Shown here in pieces: positions 1 through 14,409 of a stretch of DNA of 64,000 bases. Every line of letters starts with the position of its first letter. The stretch's first letter is position 1. The position numbers were made by a program, and so were the translations under genes. The DNA lies in contig CAYYMD010000005.1 of the NCBI GenBank assembly GCA_964472875.1, positions 7,670 through 71,669 of the forward strand. Reading direction: 5' to 3'. The notes below the pieces were generated by a model, which saw only the letters and a list, made by a program, of their open reading frames with translations, did no database searches and was not told the origin of the DNA. This DNA comes from an uncultured Planctomycetaceae bacterium (GTDB lineage Bacteria > Planctomycetota > Phycisphaerae > SM23-33).

Positions 1-613
1 TGATATTGACATTCGTAACGCGACCCTGCTTGCCGACAACCAGTCGCAAGATGGTTCTTCCGGTGACGCCGTCTATTTTTGCCCGCCGGGGGTAATACCG
101 GGACAGGTCCGGCGGCTGGATGAGCAGGGGCCCGCGTGTCGTTCCGGCGGGGCCGGGTGATGACGGATCGGGCGTTGGGGGGACATTCGGCGAACGGCCG
201 ACCACGGGCGTAGAAATCGCCTCGGCCGATATGTCCGGCAACCGGTCGGATACTTCCGGTACGAGGACAGCGTCGGCCCGCGGCATCGTGGGGGCGTCGA
301 GTTTTACCGTCTCTGTGGCGATTTTCGGCATCGGCGGGGAGGGCAGGTTCGGCGCGGCCGGCTTCTCGGCAGGGGCGGCGCTGGTGACAGCCGCATCAGT
401 GACGATCTTCATTTCTTCTTCGGGTAAATCTACCACCTCCAGCGGAACGGCGCGGGGCGGCTTACCTGCGGAGTCTCCTTCGGCCATGTTCCAAGCCGCC
501 AGCAATATGACGAGCGCCGCATTGAGGGCGACAGCACCGGCCGCAGCCAGTATGTGTCGGATGCGGGGCCCGGGGCGGTATTTGTGAGTCAAATTTAGTT
601 TTTTGTTTTCCAT
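1..613 (-). CDS. TonB-like energy transducer; C-terminal part runs off the window start
   Basis: Manual minus-strand translation from the ATG at 613 gives MENKKLNLTHKYRPGPRIRHILAAAGAVALNAALVILLAAW (short cytoplasmic N-terminus plus one TM helix). A Pro-rich linker follows (EKPAAPNLPSPPMPKI ... NVPPTPDPSSPGP). Then a TonB-C-like segment YYPRRAKIDGVTGRTILRLVVGKQGRVTNV. It is absent from the ORF track because the stop codon lies outside the window. It sits immediately downstream of exbD in the same orientation. Confidence 0.6.
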   Translation of the reverse strand, partial: MENKKLNLTHKYRPGPRIRHILAAAGAVALNAALVILLAAWNMAEGDSAGKPPRAVPLEVVDLPEEEMKIVTDAAVTSAAPAEKPAAPNLPSPPMPKIATETVKLDAPTMPRADAVLVPEVSDRLPDISAEAISTPVVGRSPNVPPTPDPSSPGPAGTTRGPLLIQPPDLSRYYPRRAKIDGVTGRTILRLVVGKQGRVTNVNI

Positions 614-626
614 TGCGGTTTAGCCG

Positions 627-1040
627 TTACTCTGCGATTGCGGCAACGCTGACATCCTTCGCGCCGGCGGCCTTGCAAGTGTCCAGCACCTTCAGCAGCA
701 GGTGCGTTGGCACGTCCCGGTCGGCCTGGATGACCACGCGGCGGGCGTCGAGGTCTTTCATGGCGGCCTCGATGGACGAGGCGTCGCCGGGATTTATTGT
801 GCGCCCGGCCACGTGAACGGTGCCAGCCTTGGTGATGGCCACGGGCAGGTATCGCGCGGTTATCTGCTCGGCCGAGGCGCTCTGTGGGCGGTTCACCACC
901 ACGCCGGAGTCCTGGACGAAACTCGTCGAGACGATGTAGAAAATCAGCAGGATGAACACCATGTCTATCAGCGGAGCCATCTCGATGGTCGCGCCTTTAC
1001 TGCTGTATCGCCTGCCTGTAAGCACGTCGCGGCGCATCAT
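627..1040 (-). CDS. exbD: ExbD/TolR biopolymer transport protein
   Basis: 137 aa with one N-terminal TM helix and the conserved Asp (PLIDMVFILLIFYIV), followed by an ExbD periplasmic domain. It overlaps the upstream exbB by 4 nt. Confidence 0.8.
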   Translation of the reverse strand: MMRRDVLTGRRYSSKGATIEMAPLIDMVFILLIFYIVSTSFVQDSGVVVNRPQSASAEQITARYLPVAITKAGTVHVAGRTINPGDASSIEAAMKDLDARRVVIQADRDVPTHLLLKVLDTCKAAGAKDVSVAAIAE

Positions 1041-1498
1041 CGCACCTTCTCTTTCATGCGGGCGGTTTGGGCCAATTGGCTGACCAGCTGCCGCCGACGA
1101 AGCAAAAATCTCTCGACCAGCAGGCCCGGGGCCGCTATGGCCAGACCGAACTGCGTGGTCAGCAGCGACTTCCGTATGCCGGCGCTCATCTCGGTTATAT
1201 ATCCGCCCTGCAGTATGCTTCTAAATGTTTCTATCATGCCGGTGACGGTGCCCAGCAGGCCAAACAAGGGGGCTATCACTATACACGCGCGGATGAGCCC
1301 CATGCGTCGCAGGCCCGCCAGTTCGCCGGTTTCGCGCATCGCAATGTTCCCGAAGGCCCCGGCACTGCGTAAAATTTTCGCCCGCACGGTAACGTCCCAC
1401 AGCTGCTCCAGTATCAGGAAAGTCATCGCCAGCGACAGGACGCACAGGGCGTACATCACTGCGCCGCCGTCATTTAACCATTTTATGATTTCGCTCAT
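1037..1498 (-). CDS. exbB: MotA/TolQ/ExbB proton-channel protein
   Basis: 153 aa carrying the MotA/ExbB signature LFGLLGTVTGMIETF ... LLTTQFGLAIAAPGLL. It is translationally coupled to the flanking genes. Confidence 0.8.
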   Translation of the reverse strand: MSEIIKWLNDGGAVMYALCVLSLAMTFLILEQLWDVTVRAKILRSAGAFGNIAMRETGELAGLRRMGLIRACIVIAPLFGLLGTVTGMIETFRSILQGGYITEMSAGIRKSLLTTQFGLAIAAPGLLVERFLLRRRQLVSQLAQTARMKEKVR

Positions 1499-2832
1499 TT
1501 GTCACGTCCGGATGAATCTTCGTGGTTAAGACCGAACACTCGTATCGCGTCGTGTTCGAGCAGGGCCTCGCGACGCTCGACCCAGCGGGCCAGGCCCGCA
1601 TGCGCCAACAGCAGCGGAATGGCCACCATCAATCCGAACTGCGTGGTGATAAGCGCCTCGGAGATACCGCCGGACAGCAGGCGGGGATTTCCCGTGCCCG
1701 CCGTCGAGATCGTATCGAAGGTGGCGATCATTCCAGAGACGGTACCCAGAAGCCCCAGCAGCGGCGCCACGCCTGCCAGGGCCGCCAGCACCGAGAGTGA
1801 CCTCTCCAGTTTGGGGGCCTCGGCCAGAAGGGCTGTCTCCATCGCCGCGTCGCGCTGCTGCTCGTCGGCGCCCATGGAGTCTATGCCGGCCCGCAGCACG
1901 CGGGCAGTCGGCGTGTAAGATTTTTTCAGTTCGATGTGCGCCTCTGAGGCCCGGCCGCTGCCAACCCTTGCCAATACGTCATTCACCAGCGACGGCGGCG
2001 CCTTGGTAGCCACCAGGTACACCACCCTCTCAATGATGAGGATGATTCCAACGGCCCCGACGACAATTATCGGATAAATGAACAGGCCGCCGGCGCTAAT
2101 CCAACTTTTCATCGTCCACGGCCGAGACGGGCTTCGCTCTACCAAAGACCCATCCACGTCCAAGGGCAGATGGGCAAGTTCGCCGTCGGCGGCTGCATGA
2201 AGAGTATCGGCGCCGTCCTCGGGAACGTACTGGCCCGTAACGCGCATGGAGCCGTCGGGCAATTTGCCAAGCAGGCCCAGCGTCGCCTCATTGTCGCCGC
2301 AGGCGTAGGCGGCGAAGTCGCCAAGGTGCAGCACGGTAACGCGTTGTTCGCCACCGTCGCGAGCCACGATATTTTCCGGACCGACGGTAACGTCGAAACC
2401 GTTGCGTATATTTTGCATCCGGCGCCTAAGCGCATCCCATGCTGCCTGCTCCACGGCAGCTATGGAATCGTTCACTTCTATCGAAGCGCCGGCAAGTTCC
2501 GCCAACTGTGTTACAATGTTTTTAGTGCGACGCTCGGCCATGGCGGCGTTGCTGCGGAGGTCTTCGGCCTTCTGTCGCATGCTTTCCAGCGATCGCTCGG
2601 TCTCTTTTGCCTCTGCGCGGGCGGCGTCGAGATTTTCGTAGGCCTTTTGTAACTTCGCGGCCAGTTCTTTGCGGCGTTGAAGATGTGCGGTTTTCGCCTC
2701 GGCCAGACGCTTGCGGGCCTGTTTGCGTGTGGCCCTTGCGCGGGAGAGCAGATCCTGCGGCGAGGGCAACTCCTGCGCAGCGACCGGGAGTGTAAGAATA
2801 ATGGGCACAATAACGCACAGGCCTCGCTTCAT
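1495..2832 (-). CDS. Large MotA/TolQ/ExbB-domain protein with N-terminal signal peptide and periplasmic coiled coil (TtpC-like, TonB2-system type)
   Basis: 445 aa. An N-terminal signal peptide is followed by a long coiled-coil-rich region. The C-terminal ~200 aa hold an ExbB domain (LLGLLGTVSGMIATFD ... LITTQFGLMVAIPLLL). The architecture and the position upstream of exbB-exbD-tonB match Vibrio-type TonB2 clusters. Confidence 0.6.
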   Translation of the reverse strand: MKRGLCVIVPIILTLPVAAQELPSPQDLLSRARATRKQARKRLAEAKTAHLQRRKELAAKLQKAYENLDAARAEAKETERSLESMRQKAEDLRSNAAMAERRTKNIVTQLAELAGASIEVNDSIAAVEQAAWDALRRRMQNIRNGFDVTVGPENIVARDGGEQRVTVLHLGDFAAYACGDNEATLGLLGKLPDGSMRVTGQYVPEDGADTLHAAADGELAHLPLDVDGSLVERSPSRPWTMKSWISAGGLFIYPIIVVGAVGIILIIERVVYLVATKAPPSLVNDVLARVGSGRASEAHIELKKSYTPTARVLRAGIDSMGADEQQRDAAMETALLAEAPKLERSLSVLAALAGVAPLLGLLGTVSGMIATFDTISTAGTGNPRLLSGGISEALITTQFGLMVAIPLLLAHAGLARWVERREALLEHDAIRVFGLNHEDSSGRDK

Positions 2833-3692
2833 TGTTCCTGCTCCTCGTTTTTATCGACGTTCAGGTGATGCACCGGAAGGAGCGTCCAGTGGGGCGCGGA
2901 CTGCCCCTCGGCGATGGCGAAGGCCTTTTTGATGGACTCTGCGTCCTGCTCGTCGGCCGCGGGATCCAACATCAGTTCCTCATCTTGCATGGTGGCCTGG
3001 CCGGCTTTTTTGCCGTCAAGCGACATCCACCACGCGGCCGCGCCGCCGGCGCGAAGGAGTTTGACGGTTACGGTCCGCCCGCCCAGTTCCGCGTTGACCA
3101 GTTCCACAGTTGAGGTGCAGTTGTTCTGCTCGGTTTTGGCCAGGCGATTAATATCGGCCGAAAATCGCCGCAGCGGGTCGGTTATCCCAGCAGCGGTGTC
3201 CGGCGGGACAACGCCGGGCAGCGAGTGGCCCTTCAGCGTTTCCAAGGCCTGTTCGAGCCGTTCGGCGAGTGCGTCCACCATCGCCTCGACCTCTACGAGC
3301 CGCTGCTGTTGGGCCTGCTCGTCGGCCACCTGCTTTTTCAGTTCCGAGCGATTCTTTTCGGCCTTATCGGCTTCCCGCCTGAGTTGCTCGGCCCGACGGT
3401 TGACCGAGTCTATGAGCATTTGGAGTTTTTCCTCCTCCATGGCCCATTGTTGCTCGGCCTGTTGCAGTTCATCGCGGGCCTGGTCGGCAGCGATTAGTTC
3501 GGCAATTACGTTTTGCGCGATAGAGGACGACGGGCGGGTGGCAGGCGAATCCGGCGGATCGCCCGTGGCCAGGGACATCAGCGCCAACAGACAAACAGCC
3601 GCATGCAAGTGAATGTTTTTGCATACGCGGCCGATGCCGGCGACAAACCCGACGATAATTTTCAAAACCATTTTTGATGCCTCAATTTGCAC
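2829..3692 (-). CDS. Secreted coiled-coil protein (DUF3450-like accessory protein of TonB2-type clusters)
   Basis: 287 aa with a signal-peptide-like N-terminus and extensive heptad-type coiled coil (AEQLRREADKAEKNRSELKKQVADEQAQQQRLVE...). It overlaps the downstream TtpC-like gene by 4 nt. The family assignment is by architecture and context only. Confidence 0.45.
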   Translation of the reverse strand: MQIEASKMVLKIIVGFVAGIGRVCKNIHLHAAVCLLALMSLATGDPPDSPATRPSSSIAQNVIAELIAADQARDELQQAEQQWAMEEEKLQMLIDSVNRRAEQLRREADKAEKNRSELKKQVADEQAQQQRLVEVEAMVDALAERLEQALETLKGHSLPGVVPPDTAAGITDPLRRFSADINRLAKTEQNNCTSTVELVNAELGGRTVTVKLLRAGGAAAWWMSLDGKKAGQATMQDEELMLDPAADEQDAESIKKAFAIAEGQSAPHWTLLPVHHLNVDKNEEQEQ

Positions 3693-3720
3693 GGTACAGA
3701 ATAATTATAAACTATTGAGT

Positions 3721-5769
3721 TCAAAACTTCAGGCCCAGGCCGCTTTTGAACGTGGCGCCTTCGTTGGGCCATCCGACGACCGTGGAATAATGCTCGTCGA
3801 ATATATTGTCCACGCCGAAGAAAACATAGTGCTGTTTGTCCTCGCCGAAGTAATATGTAACCTTCGTGTTGACCTCTGTGAAGTCGCCCAGGTCGACCGG
3901 CGCACTGCCCGAGGCGAGGAACCGCTGGTTTTCGTACTGAGAGACGCGCTTGGCCAGTACGGAGAATTCGACGTTCTTAATTAGGTACGACACGCCGCCG
4001 CCGAGAATGATATTGGGAACTTCCTCATCCTCGACCCATACACCATCCTCTTTTTTCTCCGTTTGCATGCCGACGGCGTTGAAGAAAAACTGCAGTCCGT
4101 TGTCGAACCTTTTTGACCGCACGTCCAGTTCCAGGCCATAGTTGTCCCTGTCGGTGTTTTCGAACAGCCCGAATTCGTTGCCATTGACGGTGACCGTCTG
4201 TCGTGTCAGCACGGCCGCGTCCTGCTGATGGACGTAAAATGCTGTCAGCGAGGCCTCGCCGAAGCGGTCCCATTCCCGCTTGAGGCCCAGGTCACATTTT
4301 GTCCTGGTCTCGGTTCCGGGCTGCTGGAGGTCGGTGTCGAGCATGCCGGGATTGGCCTCCAACTGGCCTCGCGTCACATTGGCGTGAATAGAGTAGCCCT
4401 TGGGCAGTTTATACACACCGCCGAGCGTGAACGTGTGCAGCGGATCGCGCCACTCGTCTTGGACTTTCACGTTCCTGAGGCCCCCCTTGGGGCTGCCTTC
4501 GACGTTGAAGCCGCCAAACTCGTTATAGTAGGTGCGGCTGAGGCGATAGCCGGCATTCAAAATTAAATTGCCGAAATCGTGCTCGTCGACGATTATCCCC
4601 GAATACGTCCACAGGTCAGCGGGGTTGCCCACATAAAATCGTTTTCCTGTCGGCGATATCCAGTTGTTGAACAGGCCGCCGAATCGCAGCGTGTTTTTCT
4701 CGCAGAGTTTCAGCGTCTGAGTTATTCGCGCCCCGTATTCGAAGTCGTCCTCGAGCCAGTCGTCGCTGCCGGAGGTATGGCCGTGAAATCGCCGCTGGGC
4801 GTAGTTGGCGATTATTTCTGTGGCGGCCCTGTCGCTCGGCTGATACCGCGCCTTGCCCACGAACAGGTAACTTTTCATCGGATCATAGTTAGTACTTTCG
4901 GTCCGGAACCTGGCCTGCGCGGGCGGTTCCGCAAGTTGCAGCGAGCGGTCGCCGAAGAAACTCATGCCCATAACTGAGAAAGTCCATTCCGGAGTGGGAC
5001 TGGCGACAATACGGCTATAGAGGTTGGTGATATTCTCATTGGCGTTTTCGCCATCCGGTCCGTCTGTGTGTTTGTACCCCGCCCCGATGGCGTAGGACAG
5101 TTCGCCGATTACGTCGCCGTGGCTGAGGTCAGTGCGGGAGGTGTTGTGGCTTCCGTAAAGGGTCTTAATATTGGTCCGGCGCTTGGTGTACGTGCGGGGG
5201 ATGATGTTTATCATGCCGGACATACCGCCGGGGCTGAGCATCATGGCGCCGCTGGAGCGAAGGACCTCCAGCCGTTCGAGGTTCGCGGTGCTGATAAAAT
5301 ATCCCGTTTCGTGGAATTCCCTGAACCATGCGCCGTCGATGAGATAACCCGGATAGGGATATCGCTGCCCGCGGACCGAAAAGAACTTTTTAACCTTTCT
5401 ACCGCGGGACTCCGTCCACGCGCCCGGCACGTACTTAAGCGCGTCAATGACGGAATACGCATCCAGCCATTCCATCTCCTCCTTGCCCACAACGCTTTGT
5501 GCGGTGTCCAGTCCTGGTGACTCGCTCAATGGCCGCTTGATTAGGTCGCGGGGCCCCTGGGCGGTGAAGTTGGACTTTTCGCCCTGCTCCACGGGTGATT
5601 TTTTACCCGTTATGGTGATGGTTTGCGCCTGTTCGTCCTCCCGGCCGGCGGGTTGCGTGGCCGGTTGCGTAGACGCAGCGACGGAATCATCATCGCCCGC
5701 TGCAGTCGAGTAAACGAATAAAAACGTTGCGAATATTGCCAAAAACATCTTCGAACTACTGAACTTCAT
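3721..5769 (-). CDS. TonB-dependent outer-membrane receptor
   Basis: About 680 aa with a signal peptide (MKFSSSKMFLAIFATFLFVYSTAAG), a plug-domain-like region and a long beta-barrel ending in the C-terminal aromatic GLGLKF. The probable start is the internal Met at 5769; the ORF track extends it to 5814. Confidence 0.8.
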   Translation of the reverse strand: MKFSSSKMFLAIFATFLFVYSTAAGDDDSVAASTQPATQPAGREDEQAQTITITGKKSPVEQGEKSNFTAQGPRDLIKRPLSESPGLDTAQSVVGKEEMEWLDAYSVIDALKYVPGAWTESRGRKVKKFFSVRGQRYPYPGYLIDGAWFREFHETGYFISTANLERLEVLRSSGAMMLSPGGMSGMINIIPRTYTKRRTNIKTLYGSHNTSRTDLSHGDVIGELSYAIGAGYKHTDGPDGENANENITNLYSRIVASPTPEWTFSVMGMSFFGDRSLQLAEPPAQARFRTESTNYDPMKSYLFVGKARYQPSDRAATEIIANYAQRRFHGHTSGSDDWLEDDFEYGARITQTLKLCEKNTLRFGGLFNNWISPTGKRFYVGNPADLWTYSGIIVDEHDFGNLILNAGYRLSRTYYNEFGGFNVEGSPKGGLRNVKVQDEWRDPLHTFTLGGVYKLPKGYSIHANVTRGQLEANPGMLDTDLQQPGTETRTKCDLGLKREWDRFGEASLTAFYVHQQDAAVLTRQTVTVNGNEFGLFENTDRDNYGLELDVRSKRFDNGLQFFFNAVGMQTEKKEDGVWVEDEEVPNIILGGGVSYLIKNVEFSVLAKRVSQYENQRFLASGSAPVDLGDFTEVNTKVTYYFGEDKQHYVFFGVDNIFDEHYSTVVGWPNEGATFKSGLGLKF

Positions 5770-5845
5770 CGAATAAATCCTTTCCTTTCTCTGTTGGTAA
5801 AACGTCTGTAACAATTCCGGCTGTTGGTCTACATTTTGGGGGTGA

Positions 5846-7294
5846 TTACGAGCGGCCGGGTTCGGCCATGACGATGGCGTGTACGGTGCCGTCGCGTGTT
5901 TTTATGTATCCTGTGTCGCCGACACTGGCGAAGGCGTTGCATGAGAGCACTCCGGGTATACGACGGACGATTTTTCCGGTGCGGCGATCCAGCGCCACGA
6001 GCCGTCCGTTCCGGCGGGTGTCGACGTAATAAATAAGTCCGCCGGTCTCACTCAGCGGACTGCATCCCTCGGCGGCGCGCTTCCAGAGCACCCGGCCCGT
6101 GCGACGGTCAATCGCAGTTACATTCCTGCCCCTCAGATAGAGTCCCTCGGAGGTCGTCAGCAGGCACCGGGTGGGGCTGACCGCCCTGCGCCACAGTGTT
6201 CGGCGAGAGTTTTCATCGATGCAGAACAGTTTGCTGTCCATGCCGAGTTCGGTTTGTGCGAAATAAATCCGTCCGGACCCCAGCGCCACAAGCGGTCGTC
6301 CGATGGCGAACCTGCTGTCCTCGAATTCTCGGCGCCACAAAATATGCCCGGAGGACGCCTCCAGCCGCATCAGCCGCCCCGCAGTTGCTACGTAAATATA
6401 ACCGTTTCTATTTGCCGCACGGGAAGGCAGCCCCTCACGCTCGAATGACCGCGTCCACTTTACCTCGCCCGTGGATGCGTTCAGCATTCGCACCTCGCGG
6501 CCGACGGTCCAGCATACCCTGTCCTGGCCCAGTGGCGACGGCCGGGAGGGATATATCGTGTGCCCGCGCCCCCGATAGATACTTTGCCACAATTTGCCGC
6601 CGTCGGCGGCGTCCAGCGCAAGCAGGGCGATTTGCCCGTTTTGCCCCTTGGCCAGACAGAATACCCTTTTTCCGTCGGCTGCGAGATAACCGAAACTTCT
6701 GGCCGGGCAAGTCCATTTGGACTCGCCGGTGGCGGCGTCCACGGCTACCACATGTCCGTCCGTATCATCGCCGGCAACAAAATACATGTTGTCGCCGTTT
6801 ACGATGAAACCATCCGCCGTAGAAGCCCGCGCGGCCATGGCGCCTTCGTAACGCCACTTTTCAAGAAATCCGTTGCTGGCTGATGTTTTCCGCGGCTGCG
6901 ATTCGCCACTGATTATGCCCCACAAACTCACCGCCGCGATAAGTACGGCCGCGGCGCCGAAGACAGTAATGACGCGACGAATACGACGGCCGAAACGTTT
7001 CGATTTGATTTCCCGCGACACTGCATCCTGCAATCTGTATTCGAAAGCGACCGACGGCGCATCGGCGTCGCCTGAGCATTTGACGTCGTCGGCGATCCGT
7101 CGGATTTGCTCCTTGGCCTCGCGGCAGGCCGGACATTGTCCGAGGTGCTCGCGCACCCGGCAGTGTTGCTGCGGCGAAAGGCCGCCAAAGACGTACAATT
7201 CGAGATTTTCGCGGGCTTGTCGGCAGTTCATGGCCGCATCCGGATACGGGCATATCCTTCCATCAATACGCTCAAACCGTCCGCGGCGGGACAA
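5846..7294 (-). CDS. Anti-sigma factor: N-terminal zinc-finger anti-sigma domain, TM helix, periplasmic PQQ-like beta-propeller
   Basis: The N-terminus (CRQARENLELYVFGGLSPQQHCRVREHLGQCPACRE) is a ZAS/ChrR-type anti-sigma zinc finger. One TM helix follows (ITVFGAAAVLIAAVSLWGII). The rest is repeated beta-propeller blades typical of PQQ/BamB-like repeats. It overlaps the ECF sigma gene by 23 nt. Confidence 0.55.
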   Translation of the reverse strand: MSRRGRFERIDGRICPYPDAAMNCRQARENLELYVFGGLSPQQHCRVREHLGQCPACREAKEQIRRIADDVKCSGDADAPSVAFEYRLQDAVSREIKSKRFGRRIRRVITVFGAAAVLIAAVSLWGIISGESQPRKTSASNGFLEKWRYEGAMAARASTADGFIVNGDNMYFVAGDDTDGHVVAVDAATGESKWTCPARSFGYLAADGKRVFCLAKGQNGQIALLALDAADGGKLWQSIYRGRGHTIYPSRPSPLGQDRVCWTVGREVRMLNASTGEVKWTRSFEREGLPSRAANRNGYIYVATAGRLMRLEASSGHILWRREFEDSRFAIGRPLVALGSGRIYFAQTELGMDSKLFCIDENSRRTLWRRAVSPTRCLLTTSEGLYLRGRNVTAIDRRTGRVLWKRAAEGCSPLSETGGLIYYVDTRRNGRLVALDRRTGKIVRRIPGVLSCNAFASVGDTGYIKTRDGTVHAIVMAEPGRS

Positions 7295-7880
7295 TTTTTT
7301 TGGAAATGTCGCCCGAAATTTCTTCCTCTTCCCCTGTGCTGTCTTTGTACAGTCGCCGCATCCGTCCGCTTTTACGCAGTCGCCGAAGCGCCCGCTGGGC
7401 GCGTTTTTTAGCCGCCTCGGTGGAAATCCCCATCGCTGCGGCTACGTCGACGAAAGGCATCTCATGTACAATCCGCAAAGTCAATACCATCCTGTCGTCT
7501 TTACTCAGTCCGGCCAGAATGTCCGATGCGTCAATATCTTTCCATGGTGAGGAGGTGTATGAAATGCATGTGCTCCCGAATGCCTGCTGATTCATTACAT
7601 AATTTGTCCTGCATTTCTTGTGGTGCAACCGCCGTCGAATCATATCTGTGCAAACGTTGCGGAGTATCGTATAGAACCAACTCGAGAACGGCCGGGACGT
7701 GCGGAATTTCTTACGGCTGCGAATCACACGCAGGAACGCCTCCTGGACGGCGTCTTCGGCCGCGTGCCCATCGCCGGCGTGGTCCATAATTCCATTTGCC
7801 ACTGCAAGCGCAGGCGAAGTGTAACGCCGCATGAGTTCATCGAACGCATCTGCGTCGAGGCAGGCCTTGAACCGAGCCAT
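7272..7880 (-). CDS. ECF (sigma-70 family) RNA polymerase sigma factor
   Basis: Region 2 (DAVQEAFLRVIRSRKKFRTSRPFSSWFYTILRNVCTDMIRRRL) and region 4 HTH (DDRMVLTLRIVHEMPFVDVAAAMGISTEAAKKRAQRALRRL) are both recognisable. The start is placed at the internal Met (MARFKAC...) at 7880. The ORF-track start at 8087 would add an implausible 69-aa AT-rich leader. Confidence 0.7.
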   Translation of the reverse strand: MARFKACLDADAFDELMRRYTSPALAVANGIMDHAGDGHAAEDAVQEAFLRVIRSRKKFRTSRPFSSWFYTILRNVCTDMIRRRLHHKKCRTNYVMNQQAFGSTCISYTSSPWKDIDASDILAGLSKDDRMVLTLRIVHEMPFVDVAAAMGISTEAAKKRAQRALRRLRKSGRMRRLYKDSTGEEEEISGDISKKIVPPRTV

Positions 7881-8158
7881 CAGCGATTCATCCCCAGCCG
7901 TACTTTTGCGACAGGGGACACCGTAACTTTTTCTGGAACAAAACGTTGTATTTTTCTTTTTACCGATGCTGTTGTTCCTCCGGATTTCGTGTCCCCATAC
8001 GGCACAGACGCCGCATGGCCGGCCAAATCGTCCGTTTTTGAAGTTAAACTCGATAATGTTATTATGGTTTTCCAATTTTATTGACAATTATTATTCACTA
8101 TTAATTTTCTGTTGCGATATGAAGTGTGAAGAAAATTGCCGAAATCCAAAATTTCTGG

Positions 8159-9004
8159 TTACTTGCTGAAATAAAGCCAAACGCCGTAATTGAGAGAGGA
8201 ATCTTCGGGCTTATGTCGAATTATCTCGAAGTCTTCGACATCCATTTGATTCATAATCACACGAAAACGCTTGGCGTCCTTGTCCGGATTGTACTTGGGC
8301 CCGCCGATTAAATGTTTGCGGGTCAGTTTTCTTACCTCACTTTCGGGCATAGTGGGCGCCACACCGCGCCCGATGAAGGCCTTCCCGCCCGGGCGCAGTA
8401 CCCTGTGAATTTCGGCCAGACCTGTTCGCAAGTCGCTCCAGAACTGGTAACTGCCGCGCGATATTATTATATCCGCGTAATTTTTCTTGAACGGCATGTC
8501 GCAGGCATCCGCAAACACAAATCCCGTACGATGCGCAAAATTGTAATCAAGAGATTCTTGTGCAAAGTTCCGAGCGCACCACGTGTTGATATCCGTGTTT
8601 ACCCAGTAGAAACGCTTGGTTCGCTCTACTAATTCAAAAACGAGATTGCCCGAACCGCCGCCGATATCAATCCCGATTCCCGCGCGTTTTGACAGGTTAA
8701 ACCGGTCCACCAAATAATCGGCCAGTCGGGCATAAACAATCTTCCGTCTGTCGCCAATCTTATCGATTCTCGCGGCTCTTTCCGGTCCGAATTTTTCGTA
8801 ATTCGGCCGCCGCAGGCCAAATCCAATTGTCGTGAGGGGTTTTTTTACATCAAAGCCGTGGTGAGCAAAAATTTCCCGGGCACGTGGACCGGCGCACACC
8901 AATCCCGTGCGTAAAGGAACGGCCACGATTTTCGAGCCCCTTTCAGTCGGCCGGCGGCTGCGTTCATCACCCTCGCCGCCGCTTAAAAAATGTCTTGCTT
9001 TCAA
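8159..9004 (-). CDS. Class I SAM-dependent methyltransferase
   Basis: Glycine-rich SAM motif I (GIDIGGGSGNLVFEL) and post-I/II motifs (ADIIISRGSYQFW, LRPGGKAFIG). Confidence 0.6.
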   Translation of the reverse strand: MKARHFLSGGEGDERSRRPTERGSKIVAVPLRTGLVCAGPRAREIFAHHGFDVKKPLTTIGFGLRRPNYEKFGPERAARIDKIGDRRKIVYARLADYLVDRFNLSKRAGIGIDIGGGSGNLVFELVERTKRFYWVNTDINTWCARNFAQESLDYNFAHRTGFVFADACDMPFKKNYADIIISRGSYQFWSDLRTGLAEIHRVLRPGGKAFIGRGVAPTMPESEVRKLTRKHLIGGPKYNPDKDAKRFRVIMNQMDVEDFEIIRHKPEDSSLNYGVWLYFSK

Positions 9005-9066
9005 GGCAGCACTGAATTATAAAATAATATGGAATAGTCAACTTATACTGATTTAAGGATGAACAA

Positions 9067-10227
9067 ATGAATACCATGTATGCAAGGTCAATTCGGGATC
9101 GTGTTCGGAAAGATGATTATTTTCAGGCGGCGCGTCGGCGCAGGGACACATGGTTAGGCAGCAGACTTAAGCACACTGCGTTTACCCTGGTCGAACTGCT
9201 GGTGGTCATTTTCATAATCGCTATGCTGGTGGCCATACTTGTCCCCAATCTATCCAAAGCCATGAGCGTTTCAAGGCGCGTTCAGTGCGCCAAGCAACTG
9301 CACGACATGGGCGTGGCTGCCGGTGCAATTCGTTCCAGTGGGGACACGGCGTATAACCCAGAACCGCTGTTGACCAAAACTGGCTGGGGAGGGCAACTGT
9401 TGGCCAAACTTAACGAGGAATCCTTTATTTGTCCCGAAGAAGACCCCATGCTGCCCATAGACGCAGTAAGGCATCCGCACCCCATGTCGAATTTGGGGGG
9501 ATACAGCATATACAATAAAGGCCTTGGCCACTATACGCCTTTAGAAGAAGGAGCATGGATGGTCAAACTGTCACAAACACAATTTAATAATGCTAAAAAC
9601 CAGGGTTACTTACGGGACAAGGGGCGGTGGTGGAACCCGTGGACGTATGAACCGGACAACAATCCGGGACATTACTATTTATGCTATGAAGGTATGCGAT
9701 GGAAACAAATATATAATAATCGTCAAGAGAAGGAAGAACCCGACTTTGATGATATAATCATCGAGGTGGAATTACAGCCCGGAGGCGAGACACGCGTTAC
9801 TAGTAGATATCAACCGGGGCCTTGGCCTCCTAATGGATCGACGATATATACGCATGCCATGGTTAACGAGGAGGGGGAAAAGTTTTTCGACCCGCTCAAT
9901 TTCTACCCTACTCCTACTATCTTCGATGTGGACACGGGCATGTGCAGTTACGGCATCAACTATAACGATAATGTCCGCAAGCTGGAAAGTATGGGAAAGA
10001 AGGTGCTTCTGCTGGATTACGAGGCGATGTGCGCGGAAGAGGATGACGAATACTGGGAAACCGGCCAAACGGGGGACCGCGACGGCGATGGGACGCTTGA
10101 CATCGCGCGCCACAGCGGCAAAATGAACGTTCTGTACCTCGACGGATCTGTGGAGGCGAAACGTCCGGAGGAAATCAATCCCCAGGGCGATTCGAAGATT
10201 CGCAACAGGATATGGGAAGAGAACTGA
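9067..10227 (+). CDS. DUF1559 (H-X9-DG) protein with prepilin-type N-terminal cleavage/methylation domain
   Basis: FTLVELLVVIFIIAMLVAILVPNL is a class III signal / N-methylation hydrophobic segment. The C-terminal HSGKMNVLYLDGSVE is an exact H-X9-DG motif. This family is abundant in Planctomycetota and relatives. Confidence 0.7.
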   Translation: MNTMYARSIRDRVRKDDYFQAARRRRDTWLGSRLKHTAFTLVELLVVIFIIAMLVAILVPNLSKAMSVSRRVQCAKQLHDMGVAAGAIRSSGDTAYNPEPLLTKTGWGGQLLAKLNEESFICPEEDPMLPIDAVRHPHPMSNLGGYSIYNKGLGHYTPLEEGAWMVKLSQTQFNNAKNQGYLRDKGRWWNPWTYEPDNNPGHYYLCYEGMRWKQIYNNRQEKEEPDFDDIIIEVELQPGGETRVTSRYQPGPWPPNGSTIYTHAMVNEEGEKFFDPLNFYPTPTIFDVDTGMCSYGINYNDNVRKLESMGKKVLLLDYEAMCAEEDDEYWETGQTGDRDGDGTLDIARHSGKMNVLYLDGSVEAKRPEEINPQGDSKIRNRIWEEN

Positions 10228-10281
10228 TTTGTAGTTCACGCGGCGCGGCGCAAAGACAAAGAGCGGAGAAGCGTTAATGTA

Positions 10282-10950
10282 ATGATACAGATGAGCCGTC
10301 GGATGTATATTCTTACAGGCATAGCCGTAGTGCTGGCCTGTGTTGCGGTGTGGACTCTGCTGACGGGAGAGGATATAAATGTAGATGACCCGATCCTGGC
10401 CAAAGTTTTGCGCCTGGAGCAGGAAGGCGATGTGGAAGCGCTTGCCCAAGCAGCCGGGGACGATAACACCCATCTTGCCGCCGAGGCCACAAAGGCCCTG
10501 GGGCGCATGGAAGTTGAAACCATACCACACGTGAAGGAATCCCTGAAAGACCGTCGCCAAAGGGTGCGCGAGGCGGCGGCGGGCGCGATTGGAAACATGG
10601 GCAGGCCCGCCGTGAGAAAATATCCCGGGGTAGTCGCCGACCTCGCACGGGTGGCGATGAATGACGACTCGGTGAATGTCAGGGCTTCGGCTGTGACTGC
10701 CCTCGGCAAGATGCGGGCCCACGAACACATGGAGGCGCTGCTGTCGGCCATGGACGATCCGGACGCTGCGGTCCGCGGGCGGGCGGCAAAGGCCGTTTCC
10801 AGGATTATCGGACGCGAATACGGCTTCAGGGCGAGCGCGCCGCGGGACCGGCGCCGCCAAGTTATTAAAAAGATCAGGGGCATCTGGCCGGAAATCGAAC
10901 CCTATATCCGCGAGTATTATTCCGAGGAATCACATCGCTGGAATGATTAA
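10282..10950 (+). CDS. HEAT-repeat (PBS-lyase-like) protein with N-terminal TM or signal segment
   Basis: Repeated Ala/Arg-rich helical hairpins (VREAAAGAIGNMG; VRASAVTALGKMR; VRGRAAKAVSRII) typical of HEAT/PBS lyase repeats. The N-terminus is hydrophobic (ILTGIAVVLACVAVWTLL). Confidence 0.5.
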   Translation: MIQMSRRMYILTGIAVVLACVAVWTLLTGEDINVDDPILAKVLRLEQEGDVEALAQAAGDDNTHLAAEATKALGRMEVETIPHVKESLKDRRQRVREAAAGAIGNMGRPAVRKYPGVVADLARVAMNDDSVNVRASAVTALGKMRAHEHMEALLSAMDDPDAAVRGRAAKAVSRIIGREYGFRASAPRDRRRQVIKKIRGIWPEIEPYIREYYSEESHRWND

Positions 10951-11377
10951 CTTAACCCTGTCGCAATGGGTCATAGCAACCGGAGATTTTACCTGCTGCG
11001 CTTCGGTCTGCGCCTGACTGGGGTGATAACTACTATCCGGGGCCCTGTTGCATCTCAGAGTTGAGACCGCGATTTGCCGCTGTACTTGCGGCGGAGGCGC
11101 TTAAGTATATCCAGGGCGGCCATTTGGATAACCGACGACCTGCCCGCCGACTGGTTTTCAAAAAGGTTGGCAGGCGGGTTCGTTCCATATGCTTAGATTT
11201 TTTTTGGCGCGGTAAGTCAAGTCGCGAGGCAGTTGCGCCAGCTGCACAATGGTGCTGCAATGGCCGATGGTTATAGCCGTGACCAAGTCACGAAAACGGT
11301 CCTATGCAGGTCCGACGAAGTGCTTGCATATGTGGTGAAAAAATTTTTTAACTTCCGCCGGAATCTCGCCGATGGTG

Positions 11378-11399
11378 GATTCCGGCGCGCCGGGATTCC
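11378..11399. repeat. Dispersed palindromic motif, copy 1 (GATTCCGGCGCGCCGGGATTCC)
   Basis: The core palindrome CCGGCGCGCCGG with GGATTCC flanks lies in an intergenic region and is preceded by a second inverted repeat GCCGGAATC ... GATTCCGGC. Confidence 0.6.
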
Positions 11400-11482
11400 T
11401 TCAATAAGTCTTTCTGCAAAAATGCCATATCAGCAGTTGCAGCCGCGTTTATTTTGTGCTAATCACCATCGATATTTCCTAA

Positions 11483-12580
11483 GTGGGGAAGTTTGGAGAT
11501 ATGGAGAGTAAATTAATGAATCACAAAGAACGCGTGCATACAGCTATACGTCACGAAATACCTGACATTACGCCCAAAGGCGATTTGGCAATCGAGGAAA
11601 AGCTTATTCGCAGCATTATCGGTCGGGTCCATTACGGGCGGATGAGCGCTAACGAGCGACTGCTTGCGACCTGGAACCGCCTGGGCGCCGACCTGGTCAA
11701 CATACATGAGTTCCCGATGGAACGGGTCGGGCGGACTGATTCGGGAAGTCCTATATTCCGCTCTGTTCTGGGCGACGAACATGTCATGGCGCCGGGCGCC
11801 TGCCGACTGCACCGGCCTGCAATGTCCGACATCGCGGAGGCCGAGCGATATGAAACCCCGGATGCCTCAACATGCAAAAGCGACTCTCTGGACTGGTTCG
11901 TCGCCAACAGCGATCTGTTTGTCTTCGCCCAGATCATGGGCCCGGTAAGCGCTCTGGACTGGATGCTGGGCACGGAGGATTTCCTCGTATATTGCATGAC
12001 CGAAACGAATTCCGTCCGGGACCTGATGGAGAAGGTAGCCAACTACGAAATCACTCGGGCTAAAATTTTTCTCGACCACGGCGCCGATGCGATTATGATT
12101 ACTGACGACATCGCATACAACGGCGGATTATTCCTGCCGCCGAGGATTATGGAAGAATTGGTTTGGGATCTGTACGTTCACATGTTGAGCGAGATAAAGA
12201 ACTGTCACAAAGCGCCGGTTTTTTTGCACACCGATGGCGATATCCGCGAGGTGCTTGGGAACATAGTCAAATGTGGATTTGACGGTCTGCATTCGCTGCA
12301 ACCTAGCGCAGGCATGGACATAGTGCAGGTCAAGCGCGACTTTGGCAATCGGCTTTGCCTGATGGGCAATATGGACCTGAATCACCTTATGCCTTATGGT
12401 GCGCCGGAAGAGGTAAGCAGGCAGGCAAAGTGGTTGTGCGAAACTATTGGCGGCAACGGCGGTTTCATTCTCGCAACGTGTAATGTGCTGACCGGTGCAA
12501 TCCCACTTGAAAACGTTTACGCCATGTATGGGGTTTCACCGCCGGACGGCAGTGAAACAGCCACCAGGAAAAATACATGA
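11483..12580 (+). CDS. Uroporphyrinogen decarboxylase (URO-D)/MtaA-like family protein
   Basis: 365-aa TIM-barrel-like protein resembling the URO-D/methylcobamide methyltransferase superfamily (ADAIMITDDIAYNGGLFLPP ... FLHTDGDIREVLGNIV ... LHSLQPSAGMD). The start codon is ambiguous among Mets at residues 1, 7 and 11. The stop overlaps the start of the symporter gene. Confidence 0.5.
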   Translation: MGKFGDMESKLMNHKERVHTAIRHEIPDITPKGDLAIEEKLIRSIIGRVHYGRMSANERLLATWNRLGADLVNIHEFPMERVGRTDSGSPIFRSVLGDEHVMAPGACRLHRPAMSDIAEAERYETPDASTCKSDSLDWFVANSDLFVFAQIMGPVSALDWMLGTEDFLVYCMTETNSVRDLMEKVANYEITRAKIFLDHGADAIMITDDIAYNGGLFLPPRIMEELVWDLYVHMLSEIKNCHKAPVFLHTDGDIREVLGNIVKCGFDGLHSLQPSAGMDIVQVKRDFGNRLCLMGNMDLNHLMPYGAPEEVSRQAKWLCETIGGNGGFILATCNVLTGAIPLENVYAMYGVSPPDGSETATRKNT

Positions 12581-14409
12581 CCATAATCGATACAATTGTA
12601 ATAGTTTTGTATTTAATAGGCATCGTTGCGGTGGGAGTGTATTTCTACCGCCTTTCGTCGAGGGGGACGCGGGCCTACTTCTTAGGGGGCAATAAGCTGC
12701 CGTGGTGGGCACTTGCAGCATCGGGCTCCGCGTCAAACTATGATGTGACAGGAACAATGTTCCTGGTCTCGCTGTTTTACGTAGTCGGGCTACGTAGTTT
12801 CTGGATGCTGTGGAGTTGGCAGTTCATGTCTGCGGCATTCCTGATGTCCTATATGGCTATATGGATCCGACGAACGAGGGTTATGACGGCCGTGGAACTT
12901 CTTCACATCCGCTTCGGAGCGGGCCCCGGTGGACGCATGGCTCGCACAGCCGGGGCCGTGTTAATGGTTACATTCCTGGTTTTCTCGATAGGTTATGCAT
13001 TCGTAGGTATAAGCAAGTTCCTGCCCCACGTGATCCCGGAATGGATACCCGGCAACGGGCGAATATGGGCGGTCGTGATAATGCTGTTGACTACCGTGTA
13101 CGTAACAGTGGGCGGCCTATCCGGCGTTGTGGTAACCGACCTCATACAGGCCGTGCTGATGAGCGTGGGCGGGATTCTTGTAGGGGTAATTGTTTTCATG
13201 AAACTCGACCTCTCAACCGTAGCCACCCTGCACGAACGTTTCGATACCAATATGCTTCCGCAGGCACAACTGTCGATGCCCCCCGGATATGAAACATGGA
13301 ATGACTTTGGCATCCTGTGCCTGTTCTGGTTTGCCGCTGGACTGTTGCTGAACATGAGCGGAGCCGGCGGACACTACCAGGAGCAAAGGTTTCTCGCTAC
13401 AAGGTCGGCGGGCGACTCCGCTCGCGCAGGTTGTGCATGGGGCATTTTTCTGATTCCACGCTGGGCCATGGTCGCCGGCTTCTGCTACATCGCTGCGACG
13501 GGAATGGCCGGCGCAGACGACCCGGAGCAGATTCTGCCGGTTGTGTTAATGGAAATGATTCCCGCCGGTCTTCGCGGCCTGCTTCTGGCGGCTTTTCTTG
13601 CGGCATTCATGTCCACATTCAGCTCTTACGTCAACGCTGCGGCTTCAATGGTTATCCGTGACCTGCTGCATCCTTTCATGCCGCGGATGAAAGACAGAAG
13701 CCAGGTTCTGGCTGGTTATATTGTCAGCGTAATGGCGGTTGCCTTAGGCATAATAATCGGCTTTAACGCCGAATCGATTAAAAATATATGGGTCTGGATG
13801 ATTATCGGGCTTATAGGCGGTTCTTTGATACCGAACGTGCTGCGCTGGCACTGGCACAGATTGAACGGATGGGGTTACTCTGCAGGTATATTCCTGGGCC
13901 TGATAACTGCGATGGCGGTGCGGTGCGGCCTGTTCGGCAAGGACCCTGCCGAGTATGTTTACGCACCGGTGGTCTGGATTATGACCTTGATCGGATGTGT
14001 GGCGGGATCACTTCTGACCCGCCCGGCGCCCACAAAGGTGCTGGAACGCTTCTACCGGACAGTCAGGCCGTTCGGATTCTGGGGGCCGGTCAAGAGGAAG
14101 GTCAATGCCACACCTCCTATCGGCGGCGTGGATTCTTCGCCCCTGCGCATAGCAGGTAATGTAGTGGTGGCTACAGTCAGTCTTATCAGCGCTTTCCTGG
14201 CCACATTTTTTATCGTGGGACATTATCTGCTGGCATCGATAATAACATTAATCACGGCTCTAACCGGTAGTGTTATACTCTATTTAACCTGGTACCGCCC
14301 GCTGGTTGCCGGTGAAAAGACCATAGATGATCCGCAGAAGCGGGAAAGCGAGAACACCGTCCGCTATTTTAAGATTAATCCTGAAGACTCTGAAGGCCGT
14401 AATCAATGA
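12577..14409 (+). CDS. Sodium:solute symporter family (SSS) transporter
   Basis: 610 aa with 13 or more TM helices. The N-terminal SSS signature (AYFLGGNKLPWWALAASGSASNYDVTGTMFLVSLFYVVG) is present. ATGA start/stop overlaps on both sides. Confidence 0.75.
   Translation: MTIIDTIVIVLYLIGIVAVGVYFYRLSSRGTRAYFLGGNKLPWWALAASGSASNYDVTGTMFLVSLFYVVGLRSFWMLWSWQFMSAAFLMSYMAIWIRRTRVMTAVELLHIRFGAGPGGRMARTAGAVLMVTFLVFSIGYAFVGISKFLPHVIPEWIPGNGRIWAVVIMLLTTVYVTVGGLSGVVVTDLIQAVLMSVGGILVGVIVFMKLDLSTVATLHERFDTNMLPQAQLSMPPGYETWNDFGILCLFWFAAGLLLNMSGAGGHYQEQRFLATRSAGDSARAGCAWGIFLIPRWAMVAGFCYIAATGMAGADDPEQILPVVLMEMIPAGLRGLLLAAFLAAFMSTFSSYVNAAASMVIRDLLHPFMPRMKDRSQVLAGYIVSVMAVALGIIIGFNAESIKNIWVWMIIGLIGGSLIPNVLRWHWHRLNGWGYSAGIFLGLITAMAVRCGLFGKDPAEYVYAPVVWIMTLIGCVAGSLLTRPAPTKVLERFYRTVRPFGFWGPVKRKVNATPPIGGVDSSPLRIAGNVVVATVSLISAFLATFFIVGHYLLASIITLITALTGSVILYLTWYRPLVAGEKTIDDPQKRESENTVRYFKINPEDSEGRNQ

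Follow-up and report, generated by a model that had tools for sequence, protein, structure and literature searches.

A TonB-dependent receptor encoded with an ECF sigma factor, a propeller-bearing anti-sigma factor and a TonB3-type motor: a probable gated import module in a Planctomycetota-type bacterium

We analyzed a gene cluster at one end of a 64,000-nucleotide stretch of DNA from an uncultured Planctomycetaceae bacterium (contig CAYYMD010000005.1, positions 7,670 to 71,669; this whole stretch is called the window below). An open reading frame (ORF) scan gives the following order on the minus strand: an extracytoplasmic function (ECF) sigma factor, an anti-sigma factor with a zinc-binding anti-sigma (ZAS) domain, a TonB-dependent receptor, a DUF3450 protein, a TtpC-like protein, ExbB, ExbD and TonB. 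Probably the cluster is a TonB-dependent import module that is self-contained and gated at the level of transcription, in a bacterium of Planctomycetota type (Phycisphaerae-like). The evidence that carries this reading is a promoter-like motif found upstream of both anti-sigma and receptor genes in related loci, together with the gene order of those loci. The features of the cluster are as follows.

7881-8158, minus strand: AT-rich region of 278 bp upstream of the sigma gene, its presumed promoter site, without the motif
7272-7880, minus strand: ECF sigma factor, 202 aa (Sigma70_r2, r4 and r4_2; TIGR02937)
7267-7293, minus strand: predicted ECF-type promoter TGTCCC-N17-CGTA (TGTCCCGCCGCGGACGGTTTGAGCGTA), from a comparative motif scan
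5846-7231, minus strand: membrane anti-sigma factor, 461 aa (zf-HC2 and PQQ_2)
7231-7073, minus strand: ZAS domain of the anti-sigma factor, residues 1-53 (zf-HC2)
6973-6905, minus strand: transmembrane segment of the anti-sigma factor, residues 87-109
6862-5870, minus strand: periplasmic 8-bladed propeller of the anti-sigma factor, residues 124-454 (PQQ_2)
3721-5769, minus strand: TonB-dependent receptor, 682 aa, with a signal peptide, a linker of ~25 residues, the TonB-box-like sequence QTITITG, a plug and a 22-strand-type barrel
2829-3671, minus strand: DUF3450 (TtpB-like) coiled-coil protein, 280 aa (PF11932, 61.9 bits; cutoff 32.6)
1495-2832, minus strand: TtpC-like long ExbB paralogue, 445 aa, with a signal peptide, a periplasmic coiled-coil extension of ~280 residues and a C-terminal MotA_ExbB domain
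1037-1498, minus strand: short ExbB, 153 aa (PF01618, 60.1 bits)
627-1040, minus strand: ExbD, 137 aa (PF02472, 77.6 bits)
1-613, minus strand: first 204 residues of TonB, with a membrane anchor, a Pro-rich spacer and the start of TonB_C, truncated at the window edge

Domain calls come from profile searches of the window ORFs, judged by Pfam gathering thresholds and NCBIfam cutoffs, and every assignment in the eight-gene cluster passes its Pfam threshold. This bears out a preliminary description of the same DNA, which had listed eight co-oriented minus-strand genes. That description had also called the cluster complete, which was too generous: TonB is cut by the window edge, a gene for a TPR protein is expected beyond that edge, and a further co-oriented gene at 8159-8926 had been omitted. 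The starts of the sigma, anti-sigma, receptor and DUF3450 genes were set by gene calls on an identical 7-kb Logan contig (L001; other loci are numbered likewise) and by exact copies of the proteins in the database. The sigma gene had been identified correctly but was given a start at TTG 8087; according to the gene call on the identical Logan contig, ATG 7880 is likelier.

The genes overlap by 4 nt at the DUF3450/TtpC-like, TtpC-like/ExbB and ExbB/ExbD junctions, and the remaining gaps measure 40 nt (sigma/anti-sigma), 76 nt (anti-sigma/receptor), 49 nt (receptor/DUF3450) and 13 nt (ExbD/TonB). No terminator-like site appeared in the intergenic gaps of the cluster in a consensus terminator scan, which overall did not rise above shuffled sequences. 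With neighboring genes overlapping or closely spaced and no predicted terminator between them, a single transcript seems likely. The motif would then drive one window transcript that covers the anti-sigma, receptor, DUF3450, TtpC-like, ExbB, ExbD and TonB (and TPR) genes. The sigma gene itself would be expressed from a separate promoter in the 278 bp upstream of it, where GC is 0.46-0.52, compared with ~0.58-0.62 across the cluster. A weak sigma-70-like match lies at 8104-8075, from a scan that was not above shuffles, and it is no evidence on its own.

The motif that ties the regulatory genes to the receptor, TGTCCC-N17-CGTA, was first seen in the anti-sigma/receptor gaps, where a borderline pair, TGTCC...CGTA, was inspected and then scanned for at fixed spacing. 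A blind enumeration of 5-mer/4-mer pairs upstream of sigma and receptor genes did not rise above shuffled controls. We counted the motif in 70 related loci (935,572 bp) at spacings 10 to 25 and compared the counts with second-order Markov simulations. At N17 there are 25 exact sites on the cluster strand versus 1 on the opposite strand; every other spacing gives 0-3 sites, and the simulations averaged 0.33, with a maximum of 2. Counting cluster-strand sites that are exact or have one mismatch, 13 precede the anti-sigma gene and 14 the receptor gene, and at up to one mismatch none lies upstream of the sigma, methyltransferase-fold (the gene at 8159-8926), DUF3450 or long ExbB genes. An autoregulatory promoter of this type for the sigma gene was rejected on that count. 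The spacers and flanks vary among the loci, so the motif is not an inherited block of sequence. The window contains a single exact site on both strands together, where 0.07 would be expected; it runs from 7293 to 7267 (minus strand), across the final codons of the sigma gene, with 35 nt left between its end and the ATG of the anti-sigma gene. In most loci, 13-41 nt separate the end of the -10 element from the start of the anti-sigma gene.

The motif also follows the receptor to places where no sigma gene adjoins it. Five loci without an adjacent sigma gene have it directly upstream of the receptor, and among loci anchored on anti-sigma homologs, 2 of 3 independent contexts have the exact motif in the sigma/anti-sigma junction. 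One metagenome-assembled genome (MAG) divides the system between two contigs: CAZLBC010000063.1 (L079) has the sigma and propeller anti-sigma genes with the motif, and CAZLBC010000064.1 (L005) has the receptor with the motif but no sigma gene. If the binning is correct, this is the picture expected of regulation in trans. The presence of the motif upstream of both genes across relatives, including this split MAG, supports the tie between the sigma/anti-sigma pair and the receptor that the preliminary description had proposed. From these positions we infer that the sigma factor of the cluster reads TGTCCC-N17-CGTA. A known ECF promoter of like shape is that of ECF41, TGTCACA-n16-CGTC (PMC3426412). 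We found no earlier description of the motif itself in the literature searched, the coverage of which was incomplete.

The sigma factor scores 61.7 bits for Sigma70_r2 and 41 bits for r4. Among NCBIfam models only the generic TIGR02937 is reached (85.2 bits; cutoff 42.9), every specific model falls below its cutoff, and no named ECF group could be assigned. Its partner matches zf-HC2 at 36.9 bits (cutoff 22.2) and PQQ_2 at 104.3 bits (cutoff 27.6). The N-terminal zinc motif, C-x25-H-x3-C-x2-C, is that of the ZAS family (RsrA, ChrR and RslA type), and its ligands C3, H29, C33 and C36 are invariant in 28 homologs. RsrA, however, is soluble and redox-sensing, while the window protein is membrane-anchored with a large periplasmic propeller. 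In an AlphaFold2 (AF2) model with a mean pLDDT of 84.2, a helical ZAS domain is joined by one long transmembrane helix to 32 strands that form eight blades. These four-stranded blades and the visible A-x-D-x-x-T-G-x-x-x-W repeats make the periplasmic part a PQQ_2/BamB-like 8-bladed propeller. Foldseek places BamB proteins on top for this domain (E ~4e-22, TM-score ~0.77, 17-20% identity), with tetrathionate hydrolase next. The protein is not BamB proper: it scores 75.4 bits against the BamB equivalog TIGR03300 (cutoff 285.2), and its propeller is the C-terminal domain of an anti-sigma factor, behind a transmembrane helix, while BamB is a lipoprotein of the BAM complex.

The anti-sigma family is one of fixed architecture. 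An exhaustive search returned 140 representative clusters at E<=1e-30, most of them 450-480 aa long and aligning from residue 1, so that the family comprises at least 140 clusters at 50% identity. A reciprocal scan anchored on anti-sigma homologs found an ECF sigma gene directly upstream of every one of them. We found no description of propeller-type ZAS anti-sigma factors in the literature searched (again with incomplete coverage), and the main text of the paper on ECF classification 2.0 makes no mention of propeller, PQQ or BamB-type anti-sigma factors. Two cysteines of the propeller, C390 and C431, are invariant in the 28 homologs and C192 is nearly so; C390 and C431 may form a disulfide, a redox-sensitive site or a metal-binding site in the periplasm.

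The receptor is identical to database protein P0001 and matches the Pfam Plug domain at 48.4 bits. Compared as a single sequence with solved structures it gave no match, and its family profile showed only plug-domain likeness to BtuB, Cir and FhuA. It had been described as lacking an obvious N-terminal STN signaling domain, and none was found: PF07660 gives no match at E<=0.01. The AF2 model has residues 23-59 disordered, and because only some 25 disordered residues lie between the signal peptide and QTITITG, an STN route of the FecA type is excluded.

The receptor belongs to a family with 621 matches, the best 120 of which are at least 51% identical to it. A scan of species-representative genomes yielded the 70 loci used above, 41 of them Planctomycetota-type and 29 from other phyla. 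Loci with receptors 47-86% identical are mostly MAGs labelled Planctomycetota, Phycisphaerae or Sedimentisphaerales, together with Desulfobacterota and some Verrucomicrobia; those at 32-42% come from KSB1, Calditrichota, Acidobacteriota, Latescibacterota and Bacteroidota. Truncated receptors (L043, L048, L062 and L071) distort automatic synteny counts, so the figures that follow are to be read as ranges. Energizer genes are present in 22 of the 26 Planctomycetota-type loci with at least 4.5 kb downstream, and the anti-sigma gene in 17 of the 29 with at least 2.2 kb upstream by a strict count (~18 by a wider one). Where both flanks are available (17 Planctomycetota-type loci), 9 have the full arrangement, 4 the energizer only, 1 the anti-sigma only and 3 neither. 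Among the 29 loci from other phyla, none has anti-sigma or energizer genes. On these flank counts, receptor and motor form a stable core in the Planctomycetota-type lineage, and the sigma/anti-sigma pair is a frequent but optional neighbor. As a separate observation, nine loci (L009, L011, L019, L023, L027, L028, L044, L046 and L048) have near-identical arrangements and receptors 50-59% identical, under the labels Brocadiaceae, Anaerolineales, Pirellulales and Planctomycetaceae. The third-party MAG labels look unreliable and therefore offer no basis for inferring horizontal transfer.

The energizer, which has six components when the TPR protein seen in relatives is counted, has the layout of the TonB2/TonB3 systems, with DUF3450 at its head and a long ExbB followed by short ExbB and ExbD. 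The DUF3450-like and TtpC-like assignments, which the preliminary description had left to a profile search, passed it. In the 445-aa protein, MotA_ExbB (PF01618, 108.9 bits) is confined to residues 307-426. TonB_C reaches 25.2 bits (cutoff 24.6) at residues 173-204, with about 30 C-terminal residues missing at the edge. In L004, whose receptor is 86% identical to that of the window, TonB has 235 aa, and the next gene encodes a TPR protein of 422 aa (TPR_14/16/19); a TPR protein after TonB is also found in the complete Phycisphaerales genome L002 and in other relatives.

In Vibrio, the tonB2 operon reads ttpB-ttpC-exbB-exbD-tonB-ttpD, TtpD being a TPR protein, and the tonB3 operon has the same genes with an outer-membrane receptor gene ahead (PMC6957404). 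The window cluster had been likened to TonB2. The shared gene order stands, but the layout with the receptor first is that of TonB3, which is therefore the closer analogue. Plasmid pBGP9 of Alteromonas macleodii has the identical annotated order of receptor, DUF3450, long ExbB, ExbB, ExbD, TonB and TPR. Order and domains of the window cluster thus agree with those of Vibrio TonB3/TonB2 and pBGP9 (the TPR gene being seen in relatives), and every component shows homology, at 24-41% identity. The long ExbB is 33% identical over 292 aa to that of pBGP9; for its counterpart in a Vibrio plasmid cluster the figure is 28% over 393 aa (residues 29-414), in an alignment that reaches the periplasmic extension. 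ExbD is 41% (Alteromonas) and 36% (Vibrio plasmid) identical, DUF3450 is 24% identical over 229 aa to the annotated Alteromonas protein, and the TonB C-terminus is ~30% identical. The Vibrio and Alteromonas clusters nevertheless belong to another phylum, and the window sequences fall far below the equivalog cutoffs (exbB2 TIGR02805, the best NCBIfam match of the short ExbB, 31.2 bits against 135.35; ExbD_2 TIGR02804, 32.8 against 123.45). The Alteromonas receptor is unrelated to that of the window beyond the superfamily level. By sequence comparison, then, the energizer is a distant homolog with conserved synteny, and not an ortholog by curated models. TtpB, TtpC and TtpD are needed for TonB2 function in V. 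vulnificus (PMC6957404), and ttpB/C/D have been called specific to vibrios and some marine bacteria (PMC10734418). Regulation also differs: the window cluster has an ECF sigma/anti-sigma pair, whereas in Vibrio a Fur box is predicted for tonB2, which iron limitation induces, and tonB3 is reported not to be iron-regulated (PMC6957404).

One relative has an additional receptor. In L015 (782-5864), a second, unrelated TonB-dependent receptor (744 aa, Plug and barrel) separates the family receptor from the DUF3450 energizer genes, which suggests a motor able to serve more than one receptor.

How would such a module be gated? The periplasmic propeller would read a signal, which could be either the ligand once imported or the condition of the receptor or its TonB box. 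That signal would free the sigma factor, probably because the anti-sigma factor undergoes regulated proteolysis or changes conformation. Induction would raise transporter, motor and anti-sigma together, and the joint induction of the anti-sigma would provide built-in negative feedback. Signal input through the propeller had been suggested before; it is plausible, in line with the architecture of the anti-sigma factor and the BamB-like fold of the model. BamB works by protein-protein docking on the POTRA domains of BamA, and because it acts on another protein in this way, we keep a receptor-contact model beside the ligand-binding one. Tentatively, the cluster may represent STN-independent cell-surface signaling, in which the propeller docks on the periplasmic face or TonB box of the receptor, or captures imported ligand, and reports transport to the sigma factor, which in turn raises the receptor, the TonB3-type motor and the anti-sigma factor.

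Canonical FecIRA-type signaling, in which the receptor would signal to the anti-sigma factor through an N-terminal signaling domain, invites consideration since the order of sigma, anti-sigma and receptor genes resembles Fec, Fpv and Has loci. Genes for an ECF sigma factor, for a single-pass membrane anti-sigma factor and for a TonB-dependent receptor lie together, the sigma-dependent promoter (as predicted here) precedes the transport genes and not the sigma gene, and, as in Fec, the sigma gene is apparently not autoregulated. We nonetheless regard this explanation as extremely improbable. The receptor lacks STN and has those ~25 residues in its place before the TonB-box-like motif, and the anti-sigma factor has no FecR, DUF4880 or DUF4974 domain, its Pfam and NCBIfam matches being limited to zf-HC2 and propeller families. 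It would bind sigma through the ZAS domain and sense through the 8-bladed propeller instead. The predicted promoter differs from that of Fec in also driving the anti-sigma gene. Membership in the FecIRA-type family was refuted by these domain tests.

The BamB-like fold also allows envelope-state sensing, in which the propeller would monitor outer-membrane protein assembly or stress by docking on BamA or unassembled barrels, and the receptor and TonB genes would simply belong to a stress regulon. ECF/ZAS pairs are classic stress systems, BamB proteins are the closest folds of the propeller, and distant members of the anti-sigma family regulate unrelated neighbors. All the same, we hold this to be unlikely. 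In the vicinity of the cluster, only the anti-sigma and receptor genes have the motif, and the receptor retains it when unlinked from sigma, which argues for a specific relationship between sigma and receptor. Identity to BamB is only 17-20%, the equivalog score is 75 bits against a cutoff of 285, and all PQQ-type propellers share the A-x-D-x-x-T-G-x-x-x-W repeats as structural features.

For signal entry by way of the propeller, the best functional analogy is found in Bacteroides, where the periplasmic propeller sensors of hybrid two-component systems control polysaccharide utilization loci. There, too, a periplasmic propeller is coupled to the expression of TonB-dependent import. The propeller of those sensors, though, is of the Reg_prop/Y_Y_Y type instead of PQQ_2, the output goes through a histidine kinase/response regulator and not through an anti-sigma/ECF pair, and the window has no SusD partner.

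Several findings count against a gated import module as we have drawn it. About 40% of relatives have receptor and energizer genes without an adjacent sigma/anti-sigma pair, and some of these have no exact motif, for example the complete genome L002/L022. The motif is assigned to the sigma factor by position and co-occurrence, and a promoter ahead of the anti-sigma gene instead of the sigma gene is unusual. In the window, the receptor and energizer genes have no motif of their own, and their inclusion presumes read-through over gaps of 76 nt and 49 nt. Distant anti-sigma homologs (35-37% identity) adjoin PEP-CTERM/DUF1501, ATP-citrate lyase and CBM96/SBP_bac_11 genes, so the sensor family is not bound to this receptor by necessity. 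The anti-sigma propeller matches the propeller proteins encoded beside receptor orthologs in other phyla at 18-24 bits, a likeness at family level only, and a specific kinship between them was rejected. Finally, the clues to the substrate that come from relatives conflict, glycan loci standing against oxyanion-binding fusions.

The preliminary description had proposed an oligosaccharide as the substrate, from the carbohydrate-active enzyme (CAZyme) genes nearby. Glycan uptake would have the receptor import an oligosaccharide freed by these enzymes and the propeller bind it in the periplasm, like the Bacteroides hybrid two-component sensors. Genes for a GH38 (14406-17585, plus strand) and a GH95 (18834-21335, plus strand) do lie within 13 kb. 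Relatives at ~40% identity sit in glycan loci: L045 has NagB, GntR/UTRA, GH123, GH78 with PA14, and GH2; L047 has LacI and a SusC-like receptor; and L052 has a sulfatase. Some propeller proteins beside receptor orthologs have carbohydrate-binding modules, PA14 and CHB_HEX_C in L066 and malectin in L056, and a CBM96 protein follows the anti-sigma factor in L076. The ttpB/C/D-type TonB2 system of T. turnerae serves siderophore uptake and is needed for the use of cellulose-derived carbon (PMC10734418). The argument from the window itself did not hold up. Its CAZyme genes are on the opposite strand, behind four unrelated genes (pilin-like, HEAT, URO-D-like and sodium:solute symporter family, SSF), without the motif, and they are not conserved beside close relatives (>=47% identity). 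Because these lineages are CAZyme-rich, such proximity means little. The cluster also lacks the make-up of a SusC/SusD locus, in which a SusC-type receptor of ~1000 aa begins with CarboxypepD_reg and is joined by a SusD lipoprotein and by CAZymes in the same orientation. Identity of 47-60% between receptors of different phyla is more in keeping with one conserved small ligand. We consider glycan uptake rather doubtful, and lean toward a small ligand over a polysaccharide.

Metal, oxyanion or cofactor uptake (a molybdate/tungstate-type anion, a metal chelate or a corrinoid-like cofactor) is possible, and we advance it with reserve. Here an exported methyltransferase-fold or solute-binding protein (SBP) would be the periplasmic binding partner, and the gene just upstream of the window cluster bears on this.

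8159-8926 (ORF extends to 9004), minus strand: class I S-adenosylmethionine (SAM)-methyltransferase-fold protein, 255 aa by gene call (Methyltransf_11, 53.1 bits)

Its closest solved chain is 3dlc (79.5 bits); all matches to specific families were generic and below cutoff, and no specific family was accepted. Homologs adjoin the receptor in 15 Planctomycetota-type loci and in L041, and most have a signal peptide or lipobox. In two loci the fold is fused to SBP_bac_11 (L007, 4819-6348; L017, 12025-13458), with a PBP_like match of the ModA/TupA/sulfate type as well. An SBP_bac_11 protein also follows the anti-sigma factor in L076, the Desulfobacterales ortholog in L003 has a DtxR-type Fe_dep_repress regulator and an ABC transporter as flanking neighbors, and the receptor is highly conserved across phyla of anaerobic sediments. 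Less favorably, the SBP fusion is seen in two loci only, and the window copy has neither an SBP domain nor a signal peptide obvious by eye. No riboswitch or other relevant Rfam element (cobalamin, Moco or other) was found in window positions 1-12000, which include the cluster, or in eight related loci. No cluster of Cys or Met that might bind metal is conspicuous among the invariant residues of the receptor. The ABC partners belong to the FtsX/MacB type, not known as a class of importers. Further members of the methyltransferase-fold family occur in L040, L042, L010, L046 and L061. As a family they are mostly exported, into a compartment in which one would not expect SAM.

Large PQQ_2 propeller proteins (445-1565 aa) adjoin receptor orthologs in Desulfobacterota, Acidobacteriota, Bacteroidota and Calditrichota, at the following loci.

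L038, 11969-18364: propeller-protein locus beside a receptor ortholog, Desulfobacterota
L057, 9992-16395: propeller-protein locus beside a receptor ortholog, Acidobacteriota
L066, 11918-18115: propeller-protein locus beside a receptor ortholog, Bacteroidota
L056, 2325-9340: propeller-protein locus beside a receptor ortholog, Calditrichota
L037, 650-7206: propeller-protein locus beside a receptor ortholog
L039, 11979-18390: propeller-protein locus beside a receptor ortholog

These loci usually also encode two FtsX-type permeases and an ABC ATPase, and some of the propeller proteins carry PA14, CHB_HEX_C, Fn3_assoc or malectin modules. Receptor, PQQ_2 propeller and FtsX/ABC set make up a cross-phylum envelope module that matches no described system we found.

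Planctomycetota are major degraders in sediments and anoxic habitats, and their uptake of nutrients across the outer membrane is poorly understood. The term "TonB-dependent" is absent from the Phycisphaerae genomics papers that we found, and the literature searched, with incomplete coverage, held no description of a TonB system for Phycisphaerae. The locus described here supplies a conserved receptor with its own TonB3-type motor and a defined anti-sigma family, and it extends the ttpB/ttpC/ttpD-type energizer well beyond marine Gammaproteobacteria. It is also a candidate for transport-coupled signaling that needs no STN domain, in an arrangement that appears conserved in Phycisphaerae-like Planctomycetota. 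If true, STN-independent signaling would be a third architecture coupling outer-membrane transport to transcription, beside FecR/STN and hybrid two-component sensors. The motif that links receptor and anti-sigma genes is a testable predictor of the regulon and can guide reporter design for organisms that are hard to grow.

Two distant relatives of the anti-sigma factor (35-37% identity) have other genes downstream. In L076 (1522-5820) the anti-sigma gene is followed by genes for a CBM96 protein and an SBP_bac_11 protein, and in L077 (9354-17866) by genes for PEP-CTERM, DUF3352, DUF1800 and DUF1501 proteins; because these downstream genes differ, the sensor family serves more than one regulon. 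Next to the window cluster lie a pilin-like gene with an N-terminal methylation motif (9067-10227, plus strand) and a HEAT-repeat gene (10282-10950, plus strand). Directly upstream of sigma in distant relatives there is likewise a HEAT gene (L076, 762-1364) or an N_methyl gene (L077, 8459-9211; L078), which may be coincidence or a loose association. Farther along the plus strand, genes for a URO-D-family protein (methyltransferase/decarboxylase type), a sodium:solute symporter and the GH38 alpha-mannosidase form an apparent operon at 11483-17585, with overlapping stop and start codons and without the motif. Downstream of the GH95 gene is one for a Porin_O_P protein of the phosphate-selective porin family (21620-23059, plus strand; 194.8 bits).

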